Shown here one piece after another: positions 57-16,846 of a stretch of DNA of 32,000 nucleotides. Position numbers and translations under genes: made by a program. The notes beneath the pieces are model-generated. The model worked only from the letters and a program-made list of their open reading frames with translations, had not been told where the DNA came from and did not search any database. Source of the stretch: Candidatus Babelota bacterium (GTDB lineage: Bacteria; Babelota; Babeliae; Babelales; Vermiphilaceae); NCBI GenBank assembly GCA_039809905.1, contig JBDHVY010000001.1, forward strand, positions 1,170,001-1,202,000. The letters run 5' to 3'. Position 1 is the first letter of the stretch. Every line of letters begins with the position of its first letter.

Positions 57-1157
57 TTAATTATTGTAAAGCATTCTCTTTATATTCATAATTTTTTCAA
101 CGTGATCATCAATTTCTTTTTCAGTGATGTGGTTATCTTCGAGAGTTTTTTTGATTAGGCAGATGGCTGCAGGCACATCAGTAGGACATAATAGAATATC
201 ATTTCCTGCAATAAGGGCTTGCAATTCAGCTTGTCCCTGCGAATAATTTTTTGTAATGCCACCCATATCAAGTGCATCAGTAATAATAAGACCATCAAAT
301 AGCAGTTCTTTTTGTAACACATTCGTGACAATGTTTTTTGATAGACTTGAAGGTATATTGTTTTCATTTTCAAGAGCAGGAACTTCAAGATGTGCAATCA
401 TGATGGCTGGAATATCTGCATTGATTAACGCTTTAAATGGCACTAATTCAACTGCATGCAATCTTTCTTTATCATGAGCAATAAGAGGTAAATCATAATG
501 TGAATCAACATCAGTATCACCATGTCCCGGAAAATGTTTTGCACAAGCAATAATGCCCATATCGTGTAATCCTTGTGCAAATGCAATAGCATGTTTTGTA
601 ACTATTTCTGGATTATCTCCAAACGCACGATCATTAATCACAGGATTATTTGGATTATTGTTAACATCTGCTACTGGTGCAAACACAATATTGACTCCTA
701 TTGTTTTTGCAATATTTCCAACTACTCTGCCAATATCATACGTGTATTTTTCATTATTAATTTCTCCTAGTTGTTCGTTACAAGGAAAGTGGATGAATTC
801 AGCAAAGCGACCAGCGCCAACTCTGCCGGGCTCCAAATCTTGGCCAACGAGCAATGGAATAGCTGATATACTTTGAAAGCGCAGTGTACGGTCTCTTTGT
901 TTTATGTAATCACTTTTTCCAAAAAAAATAATTCCACCGATGTGATATTCAGTGATAAGTTCTTCAATATATTCTTTATCCATGCGATACGGCTTTTTTT
1001 GCATGATTTCATGAGTAATTTCTTCATCTGCAAAAGCTGCAACCATAAATAATTGACCAATTTTTTGATCAAGAGTGAGATCACTTATATGAGGGATTTC
1101 AGAATAAATAAAAGTAAAGGAGCTGCAAAACATTATAAGAAAAAATCGCATATTCAT
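57..1157 (-). CDS. Exported glycoside hydrolase family 3 enzyme, NagZ-like beta-N-acetylhexosaminidase (single-domain GH3)
   Basis: 366-aa ORF with GH3 N-terminal-domain blocks KIGQLFMV, LLVGQDLEPGRV, FAPVADVNNNPNNPVINDRAFG, KHFPGHGDTDVDSH and IITDALDMGG. The hydrophobic N-terminus MRFFLIMFCSSFTFIYS suggests export. Confidence 0.85.
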   Translation of the reverse strand: MNMRFFLIMFCSSFTFIYSEIPHISDLTLDQKIGQLFMVAAFADEEITHEIMQKKPYRMDKEYIEELITEYHIGGIIFFGKSDYIKQRDRTLRFQSISAIPLLVGQDLEPGRVGAGRFAEFIHFPCNEQLGEINNEKYTYDIGRVVGNIAKTIGVNIVFAPVADVNNNPNNPVINDRAFGDNPEIVTKHAIAFAQGLHDMGIIACAKHFPGHGDTDVDSHYDLPLIAHDKERLHAVELVPFKALINADIPAIMIAHLEVPALENENNIPSSLSKNIVTNVLQKELLFDGLIITDALDMGGITKNYSQGQAELQALIAGNDILLCPTDVPAAICLIKKTLEDNHITEKEIDDHVEKIMNIKRMLYNN

Positions 1158-1248: not shown

Positions 1249-2109
1249 TTACATTTTCAGGTAATTGGGCATGTGCTGAATTATATAAAGTGCAGAAAGG
1301 GCTAATATATTTCCAGATGTTCTCAAAGAAGATCCCGTATAAAAATTTTTCCATCCATGTTGATTTATTGTTTTTAGAAAAACATCAAGTGGTCCTTGAT
1401 AATGTTTTTTTTCTATATCAGCATGCAATTTAGTTGCCATAACCCTCAACGGTTGTGTTGTTGCAGTCAGAAGGATTGAAGAAAAACAAGCGCTTGATGC
1501 AAAAGCTGCTGCACAGTTATCACAATAATGATTGATGTAATTTTTGATAAATGGCAATCCATTGGTATATGTTGTTGCAAATAGTATTGCTTGGAATGTT
1601 GTAGGGACTATGCCACGACTCAGGCTTTTATAGCGATGAGGAAAATTATTGATAATAGTGCGCACTGGTAATCCAGTATTTTGTTTATGGACTGCTAATA
1701 ATCCTGAAGCATTAGAAAAAGGAGCTGAAGACGCACCAGCAAGAATTGCTGCAAGAGTAGTTTTTTCGTTAGGATCTTTGTTGTTATCTGAGCACCCAAT
1801 GATGTTGTTTATTAATTTATATATAGCTGTTTGCAAAGCAATAACAGGAATATTGTTAGCAGCAAGAATAGTGTATCCTCTAAAGCAATGATGTATATTG
1901 TTCATTTTTATTTTTATTTCTAATCCTTGAGCTTTTTGTGATTGCGCATAATGGAATGGCATATAGAGAAATGTAGCGAGTAAACTACTTGTTCCACCAA
2001 TTAAGCCTGTTCGAGCGCAATCAGACATATTCTTCAATACCATCGATGATTCACTTGCATGCATATGTATTATGGTGCAGCAGAGTAAAAAGGTAACAAA
2101 TTTGTACAT
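1249..2109 (-). CDS. Mitochondrial carrier family (MCF/SLC25)-like six-helix membrane protein, divergent
   Basis: 286 aa, a typical MCF length. Three tandem ~90-aa repeats (about residues 31-103, 117-192, 199-280) each have a Gly/Ala/Ser-rich helix ending in Pro: LYMPFHYAQSQK, SSAPFSNASGLL, TTQPLRVMATKL. Each is followed by a [FY]xG helix: FRGYTILAANNIPVIALQTAIYKLI, LSRGIVPTTFQAILFATTYTNGLPFIK, WKNFYTGSSLRTSGNILALSALYII. The charged residues of the canonical Px[DE]xx[KR] signature are mostly missing, so the call rests on repeat architecture only. Confidence 0.55.
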   Translation of the reverse strand: MYKFVTFLLCCTIIHMHASESSMVLKNMSDCARTGLIGGTSSLLATFLYMPFHYAQSQKAQGLEIKIKMNNIHHCFRGYTILAANNIPVIALQTAIYKLINNIIGCSDNNKDPNEKTTLAAILAGASSAPFSNASGLLAVHKQNTGLPVRTIINNFPHRYKSLSRGIVPTTFQAILFATTYTNGLPFIKNYINHYCDNCAAAFASSACFSSILLTATTQPLRVMATKLHADIEKKHYQGPLDVFLKTINQHGWKNFYTGSSLRTSGNILALSALYIIQHMPNYLKM

Positions 2110-2142
2110 GATTTCCCCTTGTGATTGATAAAAAATTGCCCT

Positions 2143-2168
2143 AAAAAAAGGCCCTCTGATGAGGGCCT
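2143..2168 (-). terminator. Rho-independent terminator downstream of the GH1 gene 2183..3568
   Basis: 8-bp G+C-rich stem aggccctc / gagggcct with loop tgat. On the minus strand it is followed by a run of 7 T (plus-strand aaaaaaa at 2143-2149). Confidence 0.7.
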
Positions 2169-2182
2169 TAAGTAATTAATGA

Positions 2183-3568
2183 TTATTTCTTTTTTATTGT
2201 AGTCAGATATGGCGATGCGCCACTTTTTAATGTGCGTTGTTTGGTAGCCTGATCAACAGAAAAAAGACCAAATTGTGTATCATAACTTCCCCATGAAAAA
2301 CCATCTAAAAAGCTATAGTAATAATATCCTTCTACATTGTGACCTTCTGTCTTTGCTTTATGTAAGGCGTAAAGATGGCGTTTAATGAATAAATCTCTCA
2401 TGCTTTCATCATGGGTAGCGATACCATTTTGCGTAATAATCATGGGAATATGCAATTTTTTTGCGATTTTTTCTGATATTTCTTTGATTGCTAAATATAA
2501 TCCTTCAGGATATACCGTCATACTAGGAACATCAGTTGGCATTTCACTCGGGTTGCCTATATGATTGAAAATATTTTTAATATATCCATGACTATGATAA
2601 TTGATACCAATAAAATCAAGAGATTTTGGAGCAAATGCATTAGTATGATTGATCCACGCTCCTTTTTTGCCGGGGAAAGGTATTCTTAGTGCGAATATAC
2701 CGCTCGTGAAAAAATTATAAAATGAATAATTTGTGAGAATGTTGGCAACATAACAACTTGCTCTATCCCAAAAATGCCATGGTTCAAGAATGTGCACATG
2801 TTTGATAATGCCGATTCTGCTTGTGTTTCCATGCGGAGCAGCTTTAATTGCTTGATATACACGCACATGTGCTTCGAGTTCATTTTTAAGCACTGTTGCA
2901 GCACGGTTAAGACTACGAATTCCTGGAGGAGTGCTACCAAGAAGATAACCTAGTACGGCATAATTTTCTGGAGCCCAGAACGTGATCCAACGATTTATTT
3001 TGGTGCCTAATACTGCATACACTTTTAGGCAATACCGTTCAAATAATTGAATATTTTTTTCATATTCAAATCCACCTAAATAACCCCACCACAAAGGATC
3101 ACAATAATCTTTTAATATCACGGTAATTTCAATATTATTTTCGACTAATTCATTACAGAGATTTTTATATTGTTCTAATACTGCTTCATCAAAAATACCC
3201 TGTTCAGGTTCTATTCTGCTCCAATCAAGAGAAAAACAATACGTTGAAATACCCATTTCTTTCATCAATTGAACATCTTTTTTATAATTTTCTAAAAGTG
3301 ATGCATTGTTGTCAGAAGATGATCGTGTGAACGTTTGACCTTGCTTGTTTGTTTGATTTGCCCAAGCATACCAAGTACTTGTTTTTGAATAACCTTCCGT
3401 TTCATAGGAAAGGGTAGTTACACCCCACGAAAAAGATGCCGGAAATGAAAGAGCATTAATATTAATATCTTGCCATTTCCAATACGTAGTTGGTAAAAGA
3501 GAAAAATGAAATAAAGTCAAAATTATACTATAGAATAGTGCGGTGCGTTTCATGTGATGCCTTTGCAT
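2183..3568 (-). CDS. Exported GH1-fold protein (beta-glucosidase family) with Gln at the nucleophile position; possibly non-catalytic
   Basis: 461-aa ORF. It has GH1 blocks FSWGVTTLSYETEG (N-terminal signature), YCFSLDWSRIEP, WITFWAPENY (the NEP region) and MIITQNGIAT, where the usual I-T-E-N-G reads I-T-Q-N-G (CAA codon at 2431..2429). There is a hydrophobic leader. The second Met (MKRTALF, ATG at 3553) has a better-placed AAAGG and may be the true start. Confidence 0.85.
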   Translation of the reverse strand: MQRHHMKRTALFYSIILTLFHFSLLPTTYWKWQDININALSFPASFSWGVTTLSYETEGYSKTSTWYAWANQTNKQGQTFTRSSSDNNASLLENYKKDVQLMKEMGISTYCFSLDWSRIEPEQGIFDEAVLEQYKNLCNELVENNIEITVILKDYCDPLWWGYLGGFEYEKNIQLFERYCLKVYAVLGTKINRWITFWAPENYAVLGYLLGSTPPGIRSLNRAATVLKNELEAHVRVYQAIKAAPHGNTSRIGIIKHVHILEPWHFWDRASCYVANILTNYSFYNFFTSGIFALRIPFPGKKGAWINHTNAFAPKSLDFIGINYHSHGYIKNIFNHIGNPSEMPTDVPSMTVYPEGLYLAIKEISEKIAKKLHIPMIITQNGIATHDESMRDLFIKRHLYALHKAKTEGHNVEGYYYYSFLDGFSWGSYDTQFGLFSVDQATKQRTLKSGASPYLTTIKKK

Positions 3569-3624: not shown

Positions 3625-5202
3625 TTAATATCCAATCAGTGGCTTAGGCATTTGTGCTTCATATTCTTGCTGCGTGAATGTTGGTTTAATACCATAGTAT
3701 CCTCTGATAAAATCGCGATAACCTTTCGAACTCGGTTTTAAAGTACGTTTCAGGTAATTAGGTGAAGATGTATCAAAATTAACATGGAAAAAACCATAAT
3801 TACGGGTTCCAAATGCGTGAGGAAATGCAGTACTTGGCCATTCATAACTATCATGAGATGACCATGGCAAATAACCAATAACAGGATAACCTTTGCTCAA
3901 TAATTGCCTGATATTTTCTAATGCACGATTAAAGAATCGTTTTCTTTTTTCTTCTCCCTGAGGAGTATTGGCTGTTGCAATACCATTTTCCGTGATGATA
4001 ATTGGTATGTTAAGTGGTTGTGCAAGAGTATCATTGATTACTTTGACAGCTCGCTCCAGGCCTTCTGGATAATCACGATATCGTGGGTTTTCTGTCATGT
4101 ATTCAGGATTTTTTTCTTCTTGAGGTTTTGTTAAAAACATATTCATATTTGAGTAAAAATTAAGACCAATCCAATCAAGGGATTCTGGAGCGGATGCATT
4201 AATTACCGAAGCTATTTCTTTTGGACCAATAGATAAATGTGCTCTACCTGTGCTGAAAAAATCAAAAAAGAGCTTATTTTGTAATGTATCTGCTACGGTA
4301 GTAATCAATCCAGAGACAGGAGATAGATAATAGTGAGTTTTATTGCCGTAGGATCTATCAAAGAGTATCAAATTTTTTATAATACCAATTTGAGGATTTG
4401 GCAGATGTGTATTTTCTTTATATAAACTTTTTATTGTTTTGTATGCAGCAACGTGTGCTTCAAGCATGTGAGCAAGCACTTTTTGAGTGAGAACTTTATC
4501 TTTTTTGCCCGGAGTATTTTCGCCTTCTTGATATGCTTTAATTGCGTATGCTTCAGGAGCATTAAATGTTGCCCAATATGTAATATCTTTCTGTAAATTT
4601 TTATACATTTCTTCTGCAAAACGAACAAAATAGATATTGTTATTTTGATTTTCAAAACCACCTAATTTTGCAAACCATTTTGGGATGGTATAATGGTGAA
4701 GTACTACGATTGGCTCTATATTATTATTTTTTAATTGTTGGATAATTCTTTTATAATGTTCAATAGCTTCTCTGTTAAATTTTCCTCTTTTTTGTTCTAT
4801 TCGATCCCATGCAATAGTAAGGCGAAAACTGTTTATTCCTAATTCATTTTTCATTTGAGCAATATCAGTTGCATATTTGTGCCAAAAATCTATTGCATTG
4901 CCAGCAAGCGGCAATTTTTTTGAGCGATAAAAATCTGCTGTAGCATTATATTTATCCAAACCACCTTCAATTTGATAAGCAGAAGAAGACAATCCAAACA
5001 AAAACTCTTTTTGTGTTGGGTTTTGTTTATGCGCAATACTGCTTAGCCACGTTTCTTTGAATTTTTTTCCTAAATCATAAGAATTAATGGTAGGAGTTAC
5101 TTGTCCACTAACTTCATAGGTATCAGAATAATTTCTCATTGCTATCGCATTATGGGTACTAAGAAATAGTGATATTATTATGAGTTCTCTATTTTTTTTC
5201 AT
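3625..5202 (-). CDS. Exported glycoside hydrolase family 1 (beta-glucosidase-like) paralog
   Basis: 525-aa ORF with FLFGLSSSAYQIEGG, NSFRLTIAWDRIE, WATFNAPEAYA and IIITENGIAT. The leader is MKKNRELIIISLFLSTHNAIAM. Its ATG overlaps the stop of the upstream GH1 gene as ATGA (5199-5202), which implies co-transcription and translational coupling. Confidence 0.9.
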   Translation of the reverse strand: MKKNRELIIISLFLSTHNAIAMRNYSDTYEVSGQVTPTINSYDLGKKFKETWLSSIAHKQNPTQKEFLFGLSSSAYQIEGGLDKYNATADFYRSKKLPLAGNAIDFWHKYATDIAQMKNELGINSFRLTIAWDRIEQKRGKFNREAIEHYKRIIQQLKNNNIEPIVVLHHYTIPKWFAKLGGFENQNNNIYFVRFAEEMYKNLQKDITYWATFNAPEAYAIKAYQEGENTPGKKDKVLTQKVLAHMLEAHVAAYKTIKSLYKENTHLPNPQIGIIKNLILFDRSYGNKTHYYLSPVSGLITTVADTLQNKLFFDFFSTGRAHLSIGPKEIASVINASAPESLDWIGLNFYSNMNMFLTKPQEEKNPEYMTENPRYRDYPEGLERAVKVINDTLAQPLNIPIIITENGIATANTPQGEEKRKRFFNRALENIRQLLSKGYPVIGYLPWSSHDSYEWPSTAFPHAFGTRNYGFFHVNFDTSSPNYLKRTLKPSSKGYRDFIRGYYGIKPTFTQQEYEAQMPKPLIGY

Positions 5203-6836
5203 TGCTGTTCCTTGCTAAAATAATTTTGTATGAAATCGCGATAATATTCAGAGCCTTTTTTGAGTGTTCGAGGTAAATCATCTTGAGTAAAATCAACAGC
5301 AAACATACCGTATGGCCTATCGTATGGATTTTCTTGTATGAGAGAAGGCCATTCATAATTATCATGAGATGCCCATGGTGTATAGCCAATGATTGGATAA
5401 TCTTCTTCTATAAGTTTGCGAATAGTGTAAAGTGCACGTTGAAAAAAGCGAGTACGTCGAGCATTATTTTCTGTAGCAATGCCATTTTCTGTGATGATGA
5501 TAGGAATATTAAGTGGTTTTGCGATAGCATCATTAATAATTTTTACACCACGATAAATACCTTCCGGATAGTCACGATATCTTAAGTTTGCAGTTTGTCT
5601 ATCTTCATTGGTTTCTTGCTGTGGTTTTGTGCCTAACATTTCCATATTTGAATAAATATTAATACCAATCCAATCGAGTGTGTTGTAATAGCGATAATAG
5701 AGCAATGAAAGTATCATTTTGTTTTGAAATGCAGCACCAAAAGTGGTTGCAATTTTTGTTGAAAAAGCTTCTCTTTTTGTTGAAATTTTTTCCTGAGCAG
5801 GATCAAGCGGAACTATATTTTTTTGAATACCTATTTGTGGAACAGGAATATCTTTATTTTTGTACTGTTTATATAAAGCTTTGATTGCTTTGTATGATTC
5901 AGCATGAGCAGCGAGCATGTTATACATTACGTTTTCTGTTGTCAAAAGACTTTTTTTGGTTCCCGGAGGACCATCAAGAGTAAAATATCCTTTAAAAGCA
6001 TATCCTTCGATTGCATTGAATGTTGACCAATAGGTTACATCTGCATGCAATGCTTCATACATTTTTTTTGCAAAAGCAACAAAGTATTTGATATTTTTAT
6101 ATTTTTCAAACCCACCAATTTCTGCAAACCACTGTGGAATTGTATAGTGATGAAGTACTACAATAGGCTCAATATTGTTTTTTTTTAGCAGCCTAATGAT
6201 GTTTACATATTGATCGATTGCATCTTGGTTCCATAATGGCTTATTAGGATCATTCCATAATTCTGGTGCGAGTTGTATCCGATCCCATGCAATTGAAAGT
6301 CGGAAGCTATTAATACCAAGTTGTGCTTTCATTTGAGCGATATCTGTTCTATAGCGATTCCAAAAATCAATTGCTCTACCAGCTGGTTCAAATCCTTTTG
6401 CTTTATAAAAAATGGCATTGGCATTGTTGCTATCAAGGCCACCTTCATATTGATATGAAGATGATGAAGCTCCAAAAAGAAATTTTTCAGGATGATCTTT
6501 AAAACGAGCCATAATTGGATTTTTTTCTGCAGCTTTATTGATGGTTTCTTTAAATTTCCTAGCAGATTCTTTAGGGTCTATAATTGATTTTCTTTCATTA
6601 TAAAAATTTCCTAAATCCAAGGGCTTACCTGTTGCTTGCGAAGTGATAACGGCTTTTTGAAATTTAGTTTTCGATGGTTGTTCATTCTGTTGCGTAGTTG
6701 GTTGTGTAAAATTGGGCAGAAAACTTTTAAACCATTCGATTGAAAACATTGTCGGTTGTTCAGAAGCATATGTTGGATTATTTGGAAAGGATAATAAAAA
6801 AAAAGCTAATAAACTATTTTTTATAAACATACTCAT
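5199..6836 (-). CDS. Exported glycoside hydrolase family 1 (beta-glucosidase-like) paralog
   Basis: 545-aa ORF with FLFGASSSSYQYEGG, NSFRLSIAWDRIQ, WSTFNAIEGYA and IIITENGIAT. It has a hydrophobic leader and a ~110-aa N-terminal extension before the GH1 core. Confidence 0.9.
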   Translation of the reverse strand: MSMFIKNSLLAFFLLSFPNNPTYASEQPTMFSIEWFKSFLPNFTQPTTQQNEQPSKTKFQKAVITSQATGKPLDLGNFYNERKSIIDPKESARKFKETINKAAEKNPIMARFKDHPEKFLFGASSSSYQYEGGLDSNNANAIFYKAKGFEPAGRAIDFWNRYRTDIAQMKAQLGINSFRLSIAWDRIQLAPELWNDPNKPLWNQDAIDQYVNIIRLLKKNNIEPIVVLHHYTIPQWFAEIGGFEKYKNIKYFVAFAKKMYEALHADVTYWSTFNAIEGYAFKGYFTLDGPPGTKKSLLTTENVMYNMLAAHAESYKAIKALYKQYKNKDIPVPQIGIQKNIVPLDPAQEKISTKREAFSTKIATTFGAAFQNKMILSLLYYRYYNTLDWIGINIYSNMEMLGTKPQQETNEDRQTANLRYRDYPEGIYRGVKIINDAIAKPLNIPIIITENGIATENNARRTRFFQRALYTIRKLIEEDYPIIGYTPWASHDNYEWPSLIQENPYDRPYGMFAVDFTQDDLPRTLKKGSEYYRDFIQNYFSKEQQ

Positions 6837-7168: not shown

Positions 7169-8890
7169 TTACGCTTTTTTAAAAAATTGTTCGGCAAAGG
7201 AAGCATAATACTTAGAACCATCTTTGAGTGTTCTTTTCATATAATCAGGTGAATTTTTATCAAAGTTCACGGCAAAAAAACCGTAATTTTTTGAATCGAA
7301 TCCTTGTGGATTATCTTGTGTTGGCCATTCATAATTATTATGCGAAGTCCATGGCAAATACCCAATAACGGGATAACCATCTTTAATCAATTGTGTAATT
7401 GTCCACATAGCCCGTTGAAAATATCGCGTACGTTTTGCATCATCATTCGTTGCAATACCATTTTCAGTAATAATAATTGGTAGTGGTTTGCCATGGTTAT
7501 TTTTTAATTTGCCAAGAGGGAATGCGAGATTGTCAGCAATTATTTTTACTGCTCGCTCAAGACCTTCAGGATAATTTCGATAATTTAGGTTATCAGTGTA
7601 ACGCTCTTCATCAATTTCAATAAGTTTATTGCCCGTGACTTGTTCAAAGCCATTCATGAATCTATTTGAATATACGTTGACTCCAATCCAATCGAATGCT
7701 TTATGAGCATGTTTGTGTTCACGATATACATTCAGACCTTTAGCAGTTTTCATAAAATCCGCATCAGGAGTATACATGCAATATACGCCATTAACCAAGA
7801 AATCGAATGTTCCACCTGATTGTATATATGATCCCATTGCGCACCCCAGCGCTGTTTTAAGGTTGTTACTATCCCAATGAGGATCAATAAGTACAATATT
7901 AATCTGTGTGCCAATAGATGGCTGTTTTAAAAGAGGATTGTGTTTTTTGAGATTTTTATATTGACGTTGAATTGCCAGAGCGGTATCAACCAGTTCGTAA
8001 TACATGTTGGCAATGACGGTGTGAGTTTTTTGGATATTATTTTTTTCACCGGGTGTTCCATCACCAGTAAAGTATCCTTTAAATGCAGGGCCTTCTGGTG
8101 CATTGCACATAGATATAAGACAATTTCCTAATTCTTCTGCCAGCTCAGTATAAACTTTTAAGCAGAATTCTTGGAAATACGCCCCATTTTTTTGTAGTTC
8201 AAATCCACCCAGATCTTCAAACCATTGTGGTACATCATAATGATGAAAAACGATCATTGGTTTAATGCCATGAGCAATAAGTACGTTGATAACTTTTTTG
8301 TAGAATGCAATTGCATCCATATCAAATACACCCAGCTGTGGTTGAATTCTGTTCCATGCAAGTGATAAACGATATGCATTAATGTGTAATTCTTGAGCGA
8401 GTTGTTCTATATCAGTTTCGTAACGGTGATAAAAATCAATCGCATCACCAGCGATTTGTAATTGTGCCTTATCACGGTAAAAACGTGCAGCAGCAGATGT
8501 TTCATCAAGACCACCTTCAATCTGATACGCAGAAGATGATGCGCCGAGCAAAAATTCTTCTGGTTTGATATCAGTGCAAGGGTTATCTATGATCGCGTTA
8601 TATAAAGCTTCAACATCAATAAGAATATTTTCTGGAGTGGCAAAAACTCCTGGGCCATATAGTTGAGCTAATTTTTCTTCGATTAAGGTATGTTCTAAGC
8701 GTCCATTATTCCAAAAATGTTTTGCAATGGCGTTTGCCATTACTTTAGCGAATTTAGCGCGTTGCTTGGCATATATCTTGGCATTTTTGACTGATGCTGG
8801 TAGTTCAAATGCCTGAGTGCTTGGCAAAAGGGTGATTATACCCATTAATATTGTCGACTTAAAGGGCAAAAGTGCTTTTTTATACATCAT
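7169..8890 (-). CDS. Exported glycoside hydrolase family 1 (beta-glucosidase-like) paralog with a long N-terminal extension
   Basis: 573-aa ORF with FLLGASSSAYQIEGG, NAYRLSLAWNRIQP, ISMCNAPEGPA and IIITENGIAT, plus a hydrophobic leader. Confidence 0.9.
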   Translation of the reverse strand: MMYKKALLPFKSTILMGIITLLPSTQAFELPASVKNAKIYAKQRAKFAKVMANAIAKHFWNNGRLEHTLIEEKLAQLYGPGVFATPENILIDVEALYNAIIDNPCTDIKPEEFLLGASSSAYQIEGGLDETSAAARFYRDKAQLQIAGDAIDFYHRYETDIEQLAQELHINAYRLSLAWNRIQPQLGVFDMDAIAFYKKVINVLIAHGIKPMIVFHHYDVPQWFEDLGGFELQKNGAYFQEFCLKVYTELAEELGNCLISMCNAPEGPAFKGYFTGDGTPGEKNNIQKTHTVIANMYYELVDTALAIQRQYKNLKKHNPLLKQPSIGTQINIVLIDPHWDSNNLKTALGCAMGSYIQSGGTFDFLVNGVYCMYTPDADFMKTAKGLNVYREHKHAHKAFDWIGVNVYSNRFMNGFEQVTGNKLIEIDEERYTDNLNYRNYPEGLERAVKIIADNLAFPLGKLKNNHGKPLPIIITENGIATNDDAKRTRYFQRAMWTITQLIKDGYPVIGYLPWTSHNNYEWPTQDNPQGFDSKNYGFFAVNFDKNSPDYMKRTLKDGSKYYASFAEQFFKKA

Positions 8891-9142: not shown

Positions 9143-9715
9143 ATGTATAGGATGTTTAAAGCTTGTATATTAGTGCTCGTTTCAATAAGCTCATCTCTCT
9201 GCTTTAGTATGCATGGTATGAACGCTATAGAAAGAGCACGTGACCATTTCGATCGTATGGCTGAATATTCACATAAAACTAAACTTTTGGAACATTCTTC
9301 TTTTACCGGAGAAAGCTTAAACTTTCAAAATAGATTTTTTACTTCGAAATATATGGAGTTGCCAGGAGATATTGCTTCTCACATTCTTCTTATAAGCAAA
9401 AATGTTTCGGTAGATCCAAGTGGTCTTGTCTTTGCATATCATGGTCATTATCGTAAACAAAGCAATGATCTTATACAGTCTTTTGCACATGCGTATCTAC
9501 AAAAAGCAGAGTTATATGATCGGCAATATCAAAAACTGTTTCTTAGGCCTGATAGCAGTGAACGTCTTTTGTCTTTAAACATAATGATGCATAATGACTT
9601 AGGTCTTCGTAATCTCGTATATGATGATATGGCCCCGGCATTCCATGCTAACCATTACCCAATAGTATTAGAGATCTATCAAAGATATTATAATACATCA
9701 CGACTTTATCAATAA
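9143..9715 (+). CDS. Hypothetical exported protein
   Basis: 190-aa ORF in an otherwise empty interval, followed by a terminator. The leader is MFKACILVLVSISSSLCFSM. I recognise no domain. Confidence 0.6.
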   Translation: MYRMFKACILVLVSISSSLCFSMHGMNAIERARDHFDRMAEYSHKTKLLEHSSFTGESLNFQNRFFTSKYMELPGDIASHILLISKNVSVDPSGLVFAYHGHYRKQSNDLIQSFAHAYLQKAELYDRQYQKLFLRPDSSERLLSLNIMMHNDLGLRNLVYDDMAPAFHANHYPIVLEIYQRYYNTSRLYQ

Positions 9716-11441: not shown

Positions 11442-13100
11442 TTATGTTGTTTTTTTCCGCTCGACAGCATATTTTAATGTTTTAATAATTTTTGCTTGAT
11501 TAACACGTATGTTGAATTCAGCTTGTTCTAGAACTTTTCGAGCGTCTTCTGGTGATTCATAGTGAAAATGTTTTGTTTGGGCAAATCCATGATTAGTCTC
11601 ATAATCAAGATCAAATCCTGATAAATTGTATTCTGGGAATAATGATTTATTTTTTTCCCATAGTTCTTGATCGCTTATGCGTGGCATATAGATAACGATA
11701 GGAACATTCGGATCTTTTTTATTTTTGAAAACGCTGATAGTTTTGGTATTAATTTTTTCATAATTAATTTTGGGGAATGCAAGACTGTGTTTTTTTGCAT
11801 AAGCGGCTGCTTTTTTTAATTCGGTTCCTATCTCGCCAGCTGAAGCATCGAATACTATGATAACATCGGCTTTTCGTTCTTGAGAGAATCCAAGGATTGG
11901 TGGAAATGGAAGGTTAAAATTGGTTCCGGCATCAACAAATTTTTTAGTTTTGGATTTTTCTGTTGAATTCATTTTGTACATATAATTTGGTACTTTTGCA
12001 TAAAATTTAAGAGGGCGTGTACCTTCTGATGATTTGAGCATTTTCTCAATAAATTCTGAATGTCCTATTCTTTTTGCTGCTTCATGCTCAATGGTTTCTA
12101 TATTTGCACCAAAAGCAGATCCAAATGTTCCCAAATGATACGCTAAGTTCCTTTCAGGAGGATAGGTATCAAATTCCCCCATAACTGATTCTCCTTCTTC
12201 AAAAAATCGTCCATATGCCCATGACGGTATATAGGTTCCATCGATAGGGTTTCCTATTTCATGAGGAGTAAATTCATACCATATTTGATCTGAAACAATA
12301 TTTTCAGCACCATCAATTGCTACGTAAACGGGACAGGGGAGTTCTCCATGAGCAACCTTTTTTGCTTGATCTGATAAGTAAACGATATGTCTATCATCAC
12401 CAAAGCATTGCAAAAAATTGTTGCCTAATAAACTACCATATAAATCTACGGGAGTTTTTTTTTGTTTATGAATATCTTTTGCTCGAGCAATATCAAAGAT
12501 TAATAATTCTTCTTTGTCTGTAGGATTTATAAATGATTTTGATACGCAATTGATGATATATTTTTTGAGCTCTTGGCATGGCATACCACTAGACATCCAT
12601 GGTGCAACTGTCCACGTAGAACCAGAAAGCGCTGTCACATGAGTGATAGCATCAAGAATGCCTATGTTTTCTACGCCACATAGTGCTCCTGCGGTATATA
12701 ATGCTGCTCGGCATCCACCGCCACTATTGACCATAGCAACTTTTAATATCTGTTCGTTTTGTAATGGTTCGCCTACTATTTTCTCTAAACAGGCTTTATT
12801 AACAGCAAGCCGTTTTTGTAAACATTTTTTTTCGCCATCACTAATTTCTGGACCTTTTCTAACGGAAGCAGGTTTAAATTTATATTGATTATGAGTTATT
12901 GCTTTTGGTTCACCAGCTAGTGCATTGCCAAGTTCGGGTATAATAGTGCCAATAACGGTACCAAGTTCCTTTTTTGCAGTTTCAATATCTTTTTCAAAAT
13001 GGCGGATGTCTTTTTCGATGTTCTCTTTGAGATGATGCATACTGTGAGAATATGGACTAAAAAATATACATATAAGAATGGCTGAAAGCTGAATAAACAT
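11442..13100 (-). CDS. Exported cytosolic-phospholipase-A2-type (PLA2_B / lysophospholipase catalytic domain) lipase
   Basis: 552 aa. VNSGGGCRAALYTAGALCGVENIGILDAITHVTALSGSTW matches the cPLA2 oxyanion GGGxR block and the G-L-S-G-S-T-W nucleophile elbow. FVDAGTNFNLPFPPIL...ADVIIVFDASAG matches the catalytic-Asp D-A-G block. The leader is MFIQLSAILICIFFSPYSHSM. Confidence 0.8.
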   Translation of the reverse strand: MFIQLSAILICIFFSPYSHSMHHLKENIEKDIRHFEKDIETAKKELGTVIGTIIPELGNALAGEPKAITHNQYKFKPASVRKGPEISDGEKKCLQKRLAVNKACLEKIVGEPLQNEQILKVAMVNSGGGCRAALYTAGALCGVENIGILDAITHVTALSGSTWTVAPWMSSGMPCQELKKYIINCVSKSFINPTDKEELLIFDIARAKDIHKQKKTPVDLYGSLLGNNFLQCFGDDRHIVYLSDQAKKVAHGELPCPVYVAIDGAENIVSDQIWYEFTPHEIGNPIDGTYIPSWAYGRFFEEGESVMGEFDTYPPERNLAYHLGTFGSAFGANIETIEHEAAKRIGHSEFIEKMLKSSEGTRPLKFYAKVPNYMYKMNSTEKSKTKKFVDAGTNFNLPFPPILGFSQERKADVIIVFDASAGEIGTELKKAAAYAKKHSLAFPKINYEKINTKTISVFKNKKDPNVPIVIYMPRISDQELWEKNKSLFPEYNLSGFDLDYETNHGFAQTKHFHYESPEDARKVLEQAEFNIRVNQAKIIKTLKYAVERKKTT

Positions 13101-14003: not shown

Positions 14004-14040
14004 AAAAAAGAAGGCTGTTATATAACAGCCTTCTTTTTTT
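14004..14040. terminator. Bidirectional terminator between convergent 13257..13982 and 14039..15496
   Basis: Perfect 24-nt palindrome gaaggctgttatataacagccttc flanked by aaaaaa and ttttttt. It abuts the stop codon of the minus-strand gene. Confidence 0.8.
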
Positions 14041-15496
14041 AGCTTTCACCATATTTTTGCAATAACATATTCCTGAATTTATTATCAGGATCATATGTTT
14101 TTTTTGTTTTCAAAAGATCATCAAATTGTGGATAGGCCTTGGTAAATTGTTTTTTTGTTGCGCACATAATGTAGGGAAGATAATAGGTACCATTATGTTT
14201 TAATGCTGCCTCAATAATTTTTTCTGTCCATCTACAAGATCGATTAATTGACCACCGATTATTGAAGATGTTAAGATACAATACAAATGCAAATGAATTG
14301 TGTGGAGCATAGGACATTGTTGAAGTTGTATCAGCAGGAACGTATCGGATAGATACATTCAATACATTTACCCAATTTTTTTTCAATATTTTGACAAGCT
14401 TTTTTGCAAATTTTTCTGCGTGTTCTATCGGAATAAAATATTCTTGTAGAGTCATTGTTGAAGGAAAATGCCAATCTATAGCTAACTGATTTACCGAATA
14501 ACTCATTTCGTTATTGCGCCATACGACAGTGGTAGGGGATTTTATTTTTTTGAATTTTTCGAACGGTGCGCGACTAACATGAGCAAGAGGTACTCGTCTG
14601 AGAAACATTTCCAATGATTTATTGACCATATAAAAAGGTGATGAAGGTTCTTGTAGGCGGGTTTCATCAGTAACTAATTTATCAGTTGTATGCCATGTGG
14701 TGGTAAAACATTGTTGATAACGTTTGGGTAATAAATCTGTATTATAAAAAATGGTTGATACATCAGGAGCTATTGTTGATTCAAAAATATCTTTAAAGTT
14801 ATTGATAGTGCATTCATGTATTGTACGTTCAAGAGGTCTGTTTTCAGTTAAGCTTATTGTTGCTTGAGTAATAATGCCCAATAATCCATATCCGCCGATG
14901 GCAGCTTTAAAAAGATCAGCATTTTCTGTTCTGCTTGCAGAAATAAGATCGCCATTTGCTAAAACTATTTGAATTGATTCAATACCATTAATAACTGATC
15001 CATAGCGTATATCGCGGCCATGTGCATTAATACTTATTGATCCACCAACACTAAAGTTGTTGTATGATTGCATTGCTTTTACTGATAAATTATGAGGATC
15101 AATATATTTTTGAACATCATACCAGGTAGCACCTGCTTGCACCGTAATGATCTTTTTGTCTTTATTGAATGCAATAACTTTATTAAGATGTGATGTATCA
15201 ATGGCAATACTGTTTGGATATCCAATTTGCCCACCTTGAGAATAACCAGCTCCTATAACAGAAATTGGTTGTGTGCTATTGCTTATGATTTTTTGTAATT
15301 CTGTAACTGATTTAGGAGAGATAATATTGTTAACGCGAATTGAGCTAATACCCAATTTATCGGTTATGAAAATATCAGAGGTAAAACCATAGGAAAAGAG
15401 CTTGCACGTGTTGCCAAAGATTAAAAATATTGATGATATTGTGATCGTAGATAGAATTAACATTCTATTTTTCATATTACTTCCAATTTCATACAA
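14039..15496 (-). CDS. Membrane-anchored FAD-linked oxidase (PCMH-type FAD-binding domain family)
   Basis: 485 aa with an N-terminal hydrophobic anchor. FAD_binding_4-type blocks are ISVIGAGYSQGGQ, VQAGATWYDV, VGGSISINAHG and GGYGLLGIITQATISL. The C-terminal YPQFDDLLKTKKTYDPDNKFRN is typical of this superfamily. The substrate is unknown. Confidence 0.75.
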   Translation of the reverse strand: MYEIGSNMKNRMLILSTITISSIFLIFGNTCKLFSYGFTSDIFITDKLGISSIRVNNIISPKSVTELQKIISNSTQPISVIGAGYSQGGQIGYPNSIAIDTSHLNKVIAFNKDKKIITVQAGATWYDVQKYIDPHNLSVKAMQSYNNFSVGGSISINAHGRDIRYGSVINGIESIQIVLANGDLISASRTENADLFKAAIGGYGLLGIITQATISLTENRPLERTIHECTINNFKDIFESTIAPDVSTIFYNTDLLPKRYQQCFTTTWHTTDKLVTDETRLQEPSSPFYMVNKSLEMFLRRVPLAHVSRAPFEKFKKIKSPTTVVWRNNEMSYSVNQLAIDWHFPSTMTLQEYFIPIEHAEKFAKKLVKILKKNWVNVLNVSIRYVPADTTSTMSYAPHNSFAFVLYLNIFNNRWSINRSCRWTEKIIEAALKHNGTYYLPYIMCATKKQFTKAYPQFDDLLKTKKTYDPDNKFRNMLLQKYGES

Positions 15497-15559: not shown

Positions 15560-16846
15560 TCAAGTAAATGAGCGCCTTGATAATAGAGTTGTAAGAAGCA
15601 AAGATGTAATCAATAATCCGCTGGCAAGGGCGATGATATAGATACCATATCTTCCACTGAGTTTTGTAGAATTTTTTGATATTACAACATAGGCAGAAGT
15701 GGCGCCATGATTCAAGAGCAATTCTATTATTGGTTTTTTAATTTCTTGGCTAATATCACAATGGTTTAAGAAAGAAAGAGCTGTATATCCTTCGGCGTTA
15801 ATAGCATTTGGATTGGCGTCATGTTCTAATAATGATTGAACTGCGTATTGATTGGCATCTACATGAGATATCACACATAAGAGGGGCGTATCTTGCTTAT
15901 TGTTAATAACATTGGTTTTTGCGCCTTTGGAGAGTAAAAAATCTATTATAACGGCATTTTGCATTTTCGATGCGATATGAAGAGGCGTATCTCCTTTTTC
16001 ATCCCTAAGAGTTACAAGGTTTGGATTTTTTTCAAATAGTAGATTTGCTATCTCAATATGTTTGCAGGAAAAACCCTGGTTGTATATCTTATCTATGTGA
16101 TCCTCTTCAAGGCCATTATTATGATATTGTTCACGAGTTTTTAGTCTATGTTCGCATTCGCAAAGAGCATAAAAACAATTACTATTCATTTTTAGTGCTG
16201 CGCCATGATCTAACAATAGCTTTGTAAAATCTATGTTTTGGTATCGTATGCATTCTGCTAAACATTCGAATGTAATAAATTTTTTGTTAATTAAGCCTGT
16301 GCGAATTTTTTTATTTAATTCATTTTTATTTTTGAGTAATAACTCAACTATCTTGTATGCATCCGTATTTTTATTTCTTTTTTTACGTACAAAATCTTTC
16401 ATTAAATAAGTGAGTAAGTCTCCAGAGCTATTTCCACAACAGAATGATTCTTTTCTTTCAATTAAAAATTTAACTAAGTCATATTTTTGATGTATACATG
16501 CAAAGTAAACAGCAGGCAAGCAACTGTTCTCTCTGGTGCCTGCTTCGCGATAATCAAAACCTCTAACGGATAAAAAATTATTTATTATATCAACATTTCC
16601 TAAGCAACATAGGTCTTCGAGCAAGCCGTCTTTGCCTGGAAATTGATCGTTTCGTAAGAGTAGTTCTTTTATGTATGGTATATGAGATTCGTCACATTCT
16701 TTAGCCGATATAATTTTTTTTAGCCTTGAGAATTCTATCATGCTTTTTTCTTCATTGCTTAGCACTAAAGATTGAGATGATTCTATGCTGTAGGTTGATA
16801 GAGCAAATAAAAATATAGTAAAAAATAGAGAACAAAACTTTGTCAT
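15560..16846 (-). CDS. Ankyrin-repeat protein with N-terminal leader and C-terminal hydrophobic tail anchor
   Basis: 428 aa. ANK repeats include GDTPLHIASKMQNAVIIDFLLSKGAKTNVINNKQDTPL and EGYTALSFL...LLLNHGA. The last ~28 aa are GIYIIALASGLLITSLLLTTLLSRRSFT. It is collinear with its neighbour, sharing the QFPxKxGLLExLCCLG block. Confidence 0.85.
   Translation of the reverse strand: MTKFCSLFFTIFLFALSTYSIESSQSLVLSNEEKSMIEFSRLKKIISAKECDESHIPYIKELLLRNDQFPGKDGLLEDLCCLGNVDIINNFLSVRGFDYREAGTRENSCLPAVYFACIHQKYDLVKFLIERKESFCCGNSSGDLLTYLMKDFVRKKRNKNTDAYKIVELLLKNKNELNKKIRTGLINKKFITFECLAECIRYQNIDFTKLLLDHGAALKMNSNCFYALCECEHRLKTREQYHNNGLEEDHIDKIYNQGFSCKHIEIANLLFEKNPNLVTLRDEKGDTPLHIASKMQNAVIIDFLLSKGAKTNVINNKQDTPLLCVISHVDANQYAVQSLLEHDANPNAINAEGYTALSFLNHCDISQEIKKPIIELLLNHGATSAYVVISKNSTKLSGRYGIYIIALASGLLITSLLLTTLLSRRSFT

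Follow-up and report, generated by a model that had tools for sequence, protein, structure and literature searches.

A strongly diverged mitochondrial-carrier-fold protein with a Sec-like leader in a conserved glycosidase locus of a Dependentiae (TM6) bacterium

Introduction

The window analysed in this study is a 32,000-nucleotide (nt) stretch of DNA from Candidatus Babelota bacterium (GenBank assembly GCA_039809905.1, contig JBDHVY010000001.1, positions 1,170,001 to 1,202,000 of the forward strand). Near its left end it carries a gene for a 286-amino-acid (aa) protein with the fold of the mitochondrial carrier family (MCF/SLC25), which lies between a catalytically dead glycoside hydrolase gene of family 1 (GH1) upstream and an exported NagZ-type glycoside hydrolase gene of family 3 (GH3) downstream. 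The properties of this gene and of its surroundings suggest that a eukaryotic carrier fold has been put to new use in a TM6/Dependentiae bacterium.

Mitochondrial carriers are held to be a hallmark of the eukaryotic organelle, and two salt-bridge gates together with a charged binding site account for the way they work. The matrix gate is formed by the motif Px[DE]xx[RK]xxxQ on helices H1, H3 and H5, which provides salt bridges and glutamine (Gln) braces, the cytoplasmic gate is formed by [YF][DE]xx[RK] on H2, H4 and H6, and contact point III of the carriers is "nearly always positively charged" (PMC12410006). Pfam carrier members have been reported from "a handful" of Chlamydiales, Rickettsiales and Legionellales; LncP was characterised experimentally, and Lpg1137 was assigned to the carrier fold by bioinformatics (PMC5621508). 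Those Dependentiae (TM6) that have been cultured live inside protists as obligate parasites (PMC4378268, PMC6561590). A literature search found no paper pairing "Dependentiae" with "mitochondrial carrier", and the only mention found was that in Babela massiliensis (PMC4378268); in the literature found, the leader, the gate loss, the glycosidase locus and its conservation, the dead GH1 and the family size reported below are undescribed.

Results

The gene encodes a diverged carrier-fold protein under purifying selection

The first-pass annotation of the window, made from the sequence alone, had proposed an MCF/SLC25-like protein and had called for a Mito_carr hidden Markov model (HMM) search and a structure prediction. 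Both were carried out, and they returned a hit above the curated threshold and a three-fold, six-helix carrier fold; the condition named there as refuting, absence of a profile hit and of this fold, thus failed on either point, and the carrier assignment stands. The Pfam profile PF00153 (Mito_carr) matched the whole carrier with 35.8 bits (E=6.8e-9; gathering cut-off 22.3), and it matched 17 of the 17 retrieved members of the orthogroup. When the match was resolved repeat by repeat, repeat 3 was recognised with E=8e-7 and repeat 1 marginally (E=0.037), while repeat 2 gave no match. A profile was built from the window carrier together with the 12 relatives closest to it; run against every sequence of the PDB, it retrieved mitochondrial carriers exclusively (E ~1e-7), including the 2-oxoglutarate/malate carrier and ADP/ATP carriers (AACs). 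With the single protein as query, phmmer against the PDB gave a chance match only (E=1.7), and a search of NCBIfam gave no match.

The AlphaFold2 (AF2) model, computed from a 25-sequence alignment, had a predicted local distance difference test score (pLDDT) of 79.9 and a predicted template modelling score (pTM) of 0.77, and showed, after an unstructured leader, six helices that are long and three short ones on the matrix side (helices 21-60, 69-76, 79-104, 113-145, 149-154, 161-164, 167-195, 199-230, 240-251, 253-257 and 260-285). In a Foldseek search of the PDB with this model, all 14 matches at E<1e-3 were carriers, with template modelling (TM) scores of 0.57-0.75; the top match was human UCP1 (TM 0.75), and the carrier-fold subunits of Tetrahymena complex IV (PDB 7w5z/8b6h) were among the best structural matches. 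An earlier and poorer model (13 sequences, pLDDT 54), which this one replaced, gave the same fold.

The three-fold repeat architecture put forward in the first-pass annotation was seen in the predicted structure and in relatives, not in a self-comparison of the sequence: hhalign of repeat against repeat within the window carrier gave E=0.015, 0.43 and 0.2, and the internal symmetry was not significant. The architecture is therefore deduced from the model and from the full-length alignment to less divergent relatives that match Pfam in all three repeats, such as P0052, on which PF00153 scored 119.7 bits over three stretches covering all the repeats. The motifs that had been quoted for the odd helices were located at residues 50-59 (MPFHYAQSQK), 129-138 (APFSNASGLL) and 219-228 (QPLRVMATKL). 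The [FY]-x-G block, which had been proposed for each repeat, is present in two of them (F76-R-G78 and Y257-T-G259), while the site in repeat 2 reads S164-R-G166, with Ser in place of F/Y. The window protein is, judging by the alignments and the model, a strongly diverged member of a true carrier clade.

The ratio of nonsynonymous to synonymous substitution rates (dN/dS) of the carrier was 0.19 when compared with its closest, 90%-identical relative, L010. The GGGGA element of its Shine-Dalgarno-like (SD) sequence was also found ahead of the orthologous carrier ATG in L001, L002 and L010. The carrier open reading frame (ORF) encodes a real carrier-fold protein under purifying selection. Since it has the fold and the profile of the family and lacks its three mechanistic motifs, as described below, it was filed as a carrier-fold homologue and not as a canonical carrier.

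Both gates and the charged contact points are lost

The prolines of the matrix gate are kept in the window carrier (P51, P130 and P220). The motifs around them read P-F-H-Y-A-Q on H1, P-F-S-N-A-S on H3 and P-L-R-V-M-A on H5, so that the would-be pairs are H/Q, S/S and R/A and none of the three matrix salt bridges is possible, in agreement with the earlier remark that the charges of Px[DE]xx[KR] are largely absent. Position +9 is A, A and H, which leaves no Gln brace. At the sites of the cytoplasmic network, Y97-K98..N101, L185-P186..K189 and Q278-H279..N282, an acidic residue is found in none of the three; the register of these sites was set by the bovine AAC sequence and is possibly off by one on H6, and neither register yields a pair. 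Throughout the subfamily, leaderless members included, the canonical PxDxxK...Q motif is found on H5 only and the cytoplasmic network is missing; in the window orthogroup even the H5 gate motif of its subfamily is gone.

The contact points were taken at seven residues past the [FY]xG glycine. They are N85-N86 (I), Q173-A174 (II) and G266-N267 (III) in the window carrier, and N-[NS] on H2, [QR]-G on H4 and G-N on H6 across the orthogroup. The relatives carry S/G-M on H2, R-[DE] on H4 and R-[VI] on H6, and by the rule of Robinson and Kunji an R-[DE] pair at contact point II on H4 reportedly marks the keto-acid carrier type. The charged contact residues of the relatives are thus replaced in the orthogroup, and the binding site has changed from cationic to neutral polar. 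Residues that do not vary within the orthogroup are polar, clustering in HY.QN, HKQNTG, TTQP, KLHAD and RT.GN.

A conserved leader precedes the carrier fold

The hydrophobic, leader-like start noted in the first-pass annotation is present and is conserved in orthologues. It begins with M-Y-K, continues with an 11-residue hydrophobic core (FVTFLLCCTII) and ends with H-M-H-A/S-E-S, where the slash marks the putative cleavage site, and the pattern shared by orthologues is MYK[FI]V.LLLCC...[AS]/[ST]E. The leader is also kept intact in L010 if that gene is read from an upstream ATG with its own SD sequence; the start assigned by the gene caller lies further downstream. In the AF2 model the segment has a pLDDT <50 and stands outside the carrier fold. 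Judged heuristically by the Hessa scale and the -1/-3 rule, the leader has the short polar n-region, the hydrophobic h-region of about 10-12 residues and the small residues ahead of the cleavage site that are expected of a Sec-type signal sequence. A lipoprotein reading of its "LLCC" was tried and rejected, as there is no conserved lipobox. On the loops of the carrier, 14 Lys and Arg residues fall on the matrix side and three on the other side, which fits an N-out topology; a cleavable leader would place the N-terminus in the periplasm and hence the carrier in its mitochondrial orientation.

The carrier is fixed in a conserved glycosidase locus

The gene order YchF, one to three GH1, catalytically dead GH1, hairpin, carrier and exported NagZ-type GH3 was found in six independent genomes, namely those of the window, L001, L002, L003/L004, L005 and L006, which are independent assemblies from different samples; in L006 a WD40 gene is inserted ahead of the GH3 gene. 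The carrier is the sole membrane protein of the cluster. As had been stated in the first-pass annotation, it is encoded on the same strand as the GH3 and GH1 genes that adjoin it, and both of these also have hydrophobic leaders (Table 1). Across the genomes, identity to the window protein was 84-87% for YchF, 76-87% for the GH1 adjoining the carrier, 64-73% for GH3 and 42-59% for the carrier.

Table 1. Features of the carrier gene and its glycosidase locus, given in window positions except for the pseudo-GH1 orthologues, which are given in positions of their own contigs.
Feature	Position	Strand	Evidence
MCF/SLC25-fold gene, 286 aa	1249..2109	minus	ATG-to-stop ORF, PF00153, PDB profile, AF2, Foldseek, dN/dS
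N-terminal hydrophobic leader MYKFVTFLLCCTIIHMHASES, codons 1-21, Sec-signal-like, putative cleavage after HA/SES (at the slash)	2047..2109	minus	conservation, model
Shine-Dalgarno-like AAGGGGA, 4 nt 5' of the carrier ATG	2114..2120	minus	read from sequence
Conserved hairpin in the pseudo-GH1/carrier spacer, 9-bp stem with 6 G-C pairs, 4-nt loop and T-run	2141..2169	minus	terminator scan, folding
GH1-fold pseudo-glycosidase with leader, directly upstream of the carrier	2183..3568	minus	Pfam GH1, motifs
Pseudo-GH1 orthologues	L001 6561-7937, L002 6549-7925, L003 8341-9711, L005 8569-9945, L006 149-1525		
Three GH1 paralogues in tandem, leader-bearing and N-terminally extended	3625..5202, 5199..6836, 7169..8890	minus	Pfam, motif alignment
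Single-domain GH3 of NagZ/YbbD type (beta-N-acetylglucosaminidase) with leader, directly downstream of the carrier	57..1157	minus	Pfam GH3 N-domain

The pseudo-GH1 (456-461 aa) has ITQNG for ITENG and FWAPEN for FNEPNV in all six genomes, so that both canonical catalytic glutamate positions are substituted, and its conservation is close to the level of YchF. This conserved, leader-bearing protein may be a sugar-binding protein. The three GH1 paralogues, of which the genomes hold one to three copies, keep the ITENG nucleophile and carry N-A-[PI]-E in place of N-E-P, in orthologues too; Ala thus stands where the canonical acid/base Glu would be, and two residues downstream there is a Glu. The GH3 motif KHFPGHGDTDVDSH (NagZ-type KHFPGHG-x4-D[ST]H) is kept in the six loci, and the closest solved relatives of this protein, a cyanobacterial GH3 apart, are the exported NagZ enzymes YbbD and LpqI.

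The hairpin and a run of T7-8 were found in the spacer between the pseudo-GH1 and the carrier in six of six loci; the five short spacers gave folding energies of -16.7 to -19.7 kcal/mol, and the stem of L005 differs in sequence. The start codon of the carrier follows the hairpin after about 30 nt, which leaves too little space for a separate promoter in between, and the hairpin may be an intrinsic terminator, an attenuator of read-through or a stabiliser of the upstream mRNA. From the carrier to the GH3 gene the spacing is -4 (an overlap, in L003), 13, 30, 79 or 91 nt, with no terminator-like element in between, indicating that the carrier is most tightly linked to the NagZ-like gene. Co-located and co-oriented membrane protein and glycoside hydrolase genes, by which a glycan-utilisation cluster is recognised, are present in all six genomes.

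The carrier belongs to a large family of leader-bearing proteins

HMMER, run exhaustively over 1.84 billion cluster representatives, retrieved 1036 proteins with E<=1e-3, of which 172 reached E<=1e-10; most of the proteins retrieved are 260-310 aa in length and were matched over their full length. A separate homologue search with a 40-sequence alignment of leader-bearing relatives gave at least 13 proteins. A leader-like hydrophobic segment stands ahead of helix 1 in 94 of 147 near-full-length relatives. The first-pass annotation had described bacterial MCFs as a few examples; these numbers, together with the precedent in Babela massiliensis (PMC4378268), do not bear this out.

For two leader-bearing members outside the orthogroup the contigs were read (L007 and L008), and both showed a bacterial, diderm and ankyrin-rich context. 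The carrier of L007 neighbours GroES/EL, a penicillin-binding protein, BamA and CysS. In L008 the order is sufB, sufD, ankyrin, sufS, ankyrin, carrier P0052 (5748-6677), a gene of unknown function and nifU, that is, an Fe-S assembly locus, and a role of P0052 in mitoferrin-like or cysteine-related import is a possibility suggested by this gene order.

The leaderless members include a protein of Paulinella chromatophora, another EukProt entry and a ciliate carrier, and P0178, a more distant homologue, lies on a clearly eukaryotic contig. The closest leaderless relatives (P0047, P0096 and a block of about 31) share an odd helix-1 motif, QPxxYxKN, and the single canonical H5 gate motif; this block may represent an uncharacterised protist carrier subfamily and a possible donor. 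In a midpoint-rooted neighbour-joining tree, the glycosidase-linked orthogroup was monophyletic and nested among leader-bearing sequences, and most leaderless sequences formed one contiguous block. The tree suggests one or a few transfers from protists, which would have been followed by leader gain and radiation.

The host genome and the remainder of the window

The host is a Dependentiae (TM6) bacterium closely related to candidate division TM6 bacterium SOIL31, with which the window shares its gene order and whose YchF is 84% identical to that of the window. When one genome per prokaryotic species was scanned, relatives of the carrier were found in two genomes only, one of which was TM6 SOIL31. 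The window holds the bacterial housekeeping genes of YchF, DnaK, MiaA and a SPOR-domain protein, and its GC content is uniform at 31-38%.

Beyond the glycosidase locus, the minus strand encodes a eukaryote-like PLA2_B protein of the cytosolic phospholipase A2/lysophospholipase type (11442..13100), which is 55% identical to the syntenic gene of L005, a eukaryote-like flavin adenine dinucleotide (FAD) oxidase with a D-arabinono-1,4-lactone oxidase (ALO-type) C-terminal domain (14039..15496), and two adjoining ankyrin-repeat proteins (15560..16846 and 16852..18447), which are typical putative host-interaction factors of Dependentiae. Five ORFs of 127-435 aa, at 9143..9715 (plus), 19625..20008 (plus), 20817..21833 (minus), 25400..26356 (plus) and 26508..27815 (plus), had no match in a Pfam scan.

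At about 23900..25400, where genes switch from the minus strand (dnaK) to the plus strand, 1.5 kb is without a credible ORF and the sign of the AT skew flips. This region contains a GC-rich patch at about 24.13-24.42 kb and, at 24.4-25.05 kb, purine-rich low-complexity DNA in which a ACATATATAT-type motif recurs every 90-130 nt. A replication origin at the strand switch (about 24-25 kb) was considered and rejected, as matches to the DnaA box occurred at chance frequency and none lay in that region. An Rfam scan gave no match, and a search for tRNA and tmRNA genes found none, the 1.5-kb region included.

Discussion

The first-pass annotation had left it between a repurposed and an effector-type carrier, and the context of the locus leans towards repurposing in the bacterium's own membrane. 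We tentatively prefer the reading that the carrier is placed in the bacterial inner membrane and passes a neutral sugar freed by the neighbouring exported glycosidases. A carrier gene would have been captured from a protist host and would then have gained a Sec-type leader, which would take its N-terminus across the bacterial inner membrane. The carrier would sit in this membrane in its mitochondrial orientation, with both termini periplasmic and the Lys/Arg-rich "matrix" loops cytoplasmic. With the gates and the cationic site stripped, anion exchange would be gone, and a small neutral polar solute could run down its gradient; the best candidate would be an amino sugar or a hexose released by the exported NagZ-like GH3 and the GH1 enzymes, in the periplasm or in the host compartment, and the invariant dead GH1 encoded just upstream would possibly be a sugar-binding partner. 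That the whole of a more specific version is right, in which a gated anion exchanger was turned into a Sec-leader-targeted facilitator of neutral sugars (N-acetylglucosamine (GlcNAc) or glucose) with the dead GH1 as its periplasmic partner, within a large radiation of leader-bearing nutrient importers of Dependentiae, we regard as unlikely.

Several lines of background speak for a transporter in the bacterium's own membrane. A glycosidase gene beside its permease is a common bacterial design, and in Bacillus subtilis ybbD/nagZ presumably forms an operon with the gene of the N-acetylmuramic acid (MurNAc) transporter, murP. The position of P0052 inside a suf operon suits a housekeeping importer. 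A beta-glucosidase has been reported from all TM6 genomes, along with use of the glucose that it yields (PMC4776705), and the MCFs of Babela were read by their authors as nutrient importers of unknown specificity (PMC4378268).

A number of observations weigh on the other side. We know of no MCF that works in a bacterial membrane or carries a sugar. On the Hessa scale, the six helices of the carrier range from +2.5 to +7.7 kcal/mol and overlap the best windows of soluble proteins, while the true transmembrane helices of HtpX in the same genomes range from -3.8 to +2.5; with such scores, stop-transfer by Sec is not predicted. Nor are the leader-bearing members more hydrophobic than the eukaryotic ones. 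The possibility that they had become so, as an adaptation to Sec/YidC, was examined and rejected: they are slightly less hydrophobic (7.7 kcal/mol for leader-bearing members outside the orthogroup vs. 7.0 kcal/mol for leaderless ones; Mann-Whitney p=0.001 on the Hessa values of all leader-bearing vs. leaderless members), and this argument is therefore unusable for insertion into the bacterium's own membrane. The terminator-like hairpin argues against simple co-transcription of GH1 and carrier, the carrier evolves fastest within the cluster, as would also suit a protein at the host interface, and loss of both gates might mean that the protein no longer transports at all. Sec leaders of Dependentiae, moreover, also mark presumed secreted effectors (PMC6561590).

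An LncP-like secreted effector is the strongest competing explanation, which we consider possible yet doubtful. The protein would pass through Sec, leave the cell by type II secretion or in outer-membrane vesicles, and be inserted by TOM/TIM22 into the inner membrane of host mitochondria, where an ungated carrier would leak metabolites or dissipate gradients. The precedent is Legionella LncP, an MCF that is translocated and arrives in the inner membrane of host mitochondria (PMC3252375). Helices too weakly hydrophobic for a predicted Sec stop-transfer, and no more hydrophobic than those of eukaryotic relatives, would be in place here, given that other transmembrane effectors escape insertion in the inner membrane of the bacterium through moderate hydrophobicity (PMC12981334). 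In C. destructans, signal peptides are found on 44% of coding sequences, most of the ankyrin proteins among them, and the bacterium replicates enclosed by the host mitochondrion (PMC6561590); in the window, ankyrin and eukaryote-like genes lie nearby, and the carrier has evolved faster than its neighbours. Against this explanation, no route is known by which a membrane protein of six helices could leave the periplasm through the outer membrane; type II systems export folded soluble proteins, and the genomics papers on TM6 report Sec and type II machinery only (PMC4776705, PMC6561590). An effector role also leaves unexplained the invariant place between exported glycosidases, the 4-nt overlap with the NagZ-like gene and the relative within a suf operon, and the positive-inside charge bias suits bacterial insertion equally.

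It is improbable that the carrier fold was kept and transport was lost, so that the protein would now be a membrane anchor, a scaffold or an insertase-like factor, docking, for example, the pseudo-GH1 or the glycosidases. Precedents would be MTCH2 or the Tetrahymena complex IV subunits. This reading would suit a protein that has neither Gln braces nor a cytoplasmic network, none of the three matrix salt bridges and no positive charge at contact III; the Tetrahymena complex IV subunits among the best structural matches are part of a respiratory complex and not free transporters, and the high conservation of the dead enzyme, the most conserved gene of the cluster, hints at binding over catalysis. 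However, the polar residues predicted to face the cavity are invariant (N85/N86, Q173 or R, G266-N267, R263, TTQP and HKQNTG), which is the pattern of a remodelled binding site, and the dN/dS of 0.19 indicates constraint. An artefact, whether contaminating eukaryotic DNA, a chimeric assembly or a pseudogene in decay, could be suspected from the overwhelmingly eukaryotic distribution of MCFs and the single repeat above the Pfam threshold, but is very improbable given the same gene and bacterial neighbourhood in six independent assemblies, the uniform GC, the bacterial SD sequence, the intact frame and the dN/dS; recent transfer or contamination is ruled out by the uniform GC and the six-genome synteny.

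The window carrier is a natural carrier under purifying selection that lacks both gates and the charged site, starts with an export leader of bacterial type and has a fixed place in a locus of sugar hydrolases. Should it work in the bacterial membrane, as we tentatively prefer, it would be the first case of the carrier fold adopted as a bacterial transporter, would widen the chemistry of the fold and would show how a host-derived membrane protein can be re-targeted after gene transfer. If it is an effector instead, it would point to a Sec-leader route by which a multi-pass protein is sent to host organelles. In both cases the answer matters for the way in which Dependentiae, hardly any of which have been cultured, gain their food from protists, and the number of relatives with a leader suggests that carriers are commoner in bacteria than the cited "handful".

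Comparison with known systems

LncP is, like the window carrier, an MCF-fold protein of a protist-infecting intracellular bacterium and is presumably derived from eukaryotes; it belongs to a gammaproteobacterium, has the three-fold carrier signature, transports ATP and is delivered by the Dot/Icm type IV system (PMC3252375). In contrast, the window carrier has a Sec-like leader, no salt-bridge networks, neutral contact points and a place in a glycosidase locus, and for the TM6 phylum only Sec and type II machinery has been reported (PMC4776705). The genes of Babela massiliensis annotated as "Transporter of mitochondrial carrier family" come from the same phylum and share the fold; they were given one sentence and one table row, in which leader, gate loss, synteny and family size are not described (PMC4378268).

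The keto-acid SLC25 carriers, represented by the oxoglutarate/malate carrier and UCP1, gave the best profile and structural matches, and the wider family of the window carrier has the R-[DE] at contact point II that reportedly typifies keto-acid carriers. The window orthogroup differs from them in its [QR]-G contact II, its G-N contact III, the absence of all three matrix salt bridges and of the cytoplasmic network, the leader and the bacterial genomic context. The insertase MTCH2 and the Tetrahymena complex IV subunits (7w5z/8b6h) likewise combine the carrier fold with degenerate signature motifs; they are, however, eukaryotic organelle proteins, and nothing found here points to an insertase or respiratory-complex role of the window carrier. 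For the locus, the nearest parallel is B. subtilis ybbD/nagZ with murP, where an exported NagZ-type GH3 gene presumably likewise stands beside the gene of a membrane transporter. The B. subtilis transporter is a permease of the phosphotransferase system and not a carrier-fold protein, and the window locus is without amidase and etherase genes and has instead its GH1 paralogues and the dead GH1.

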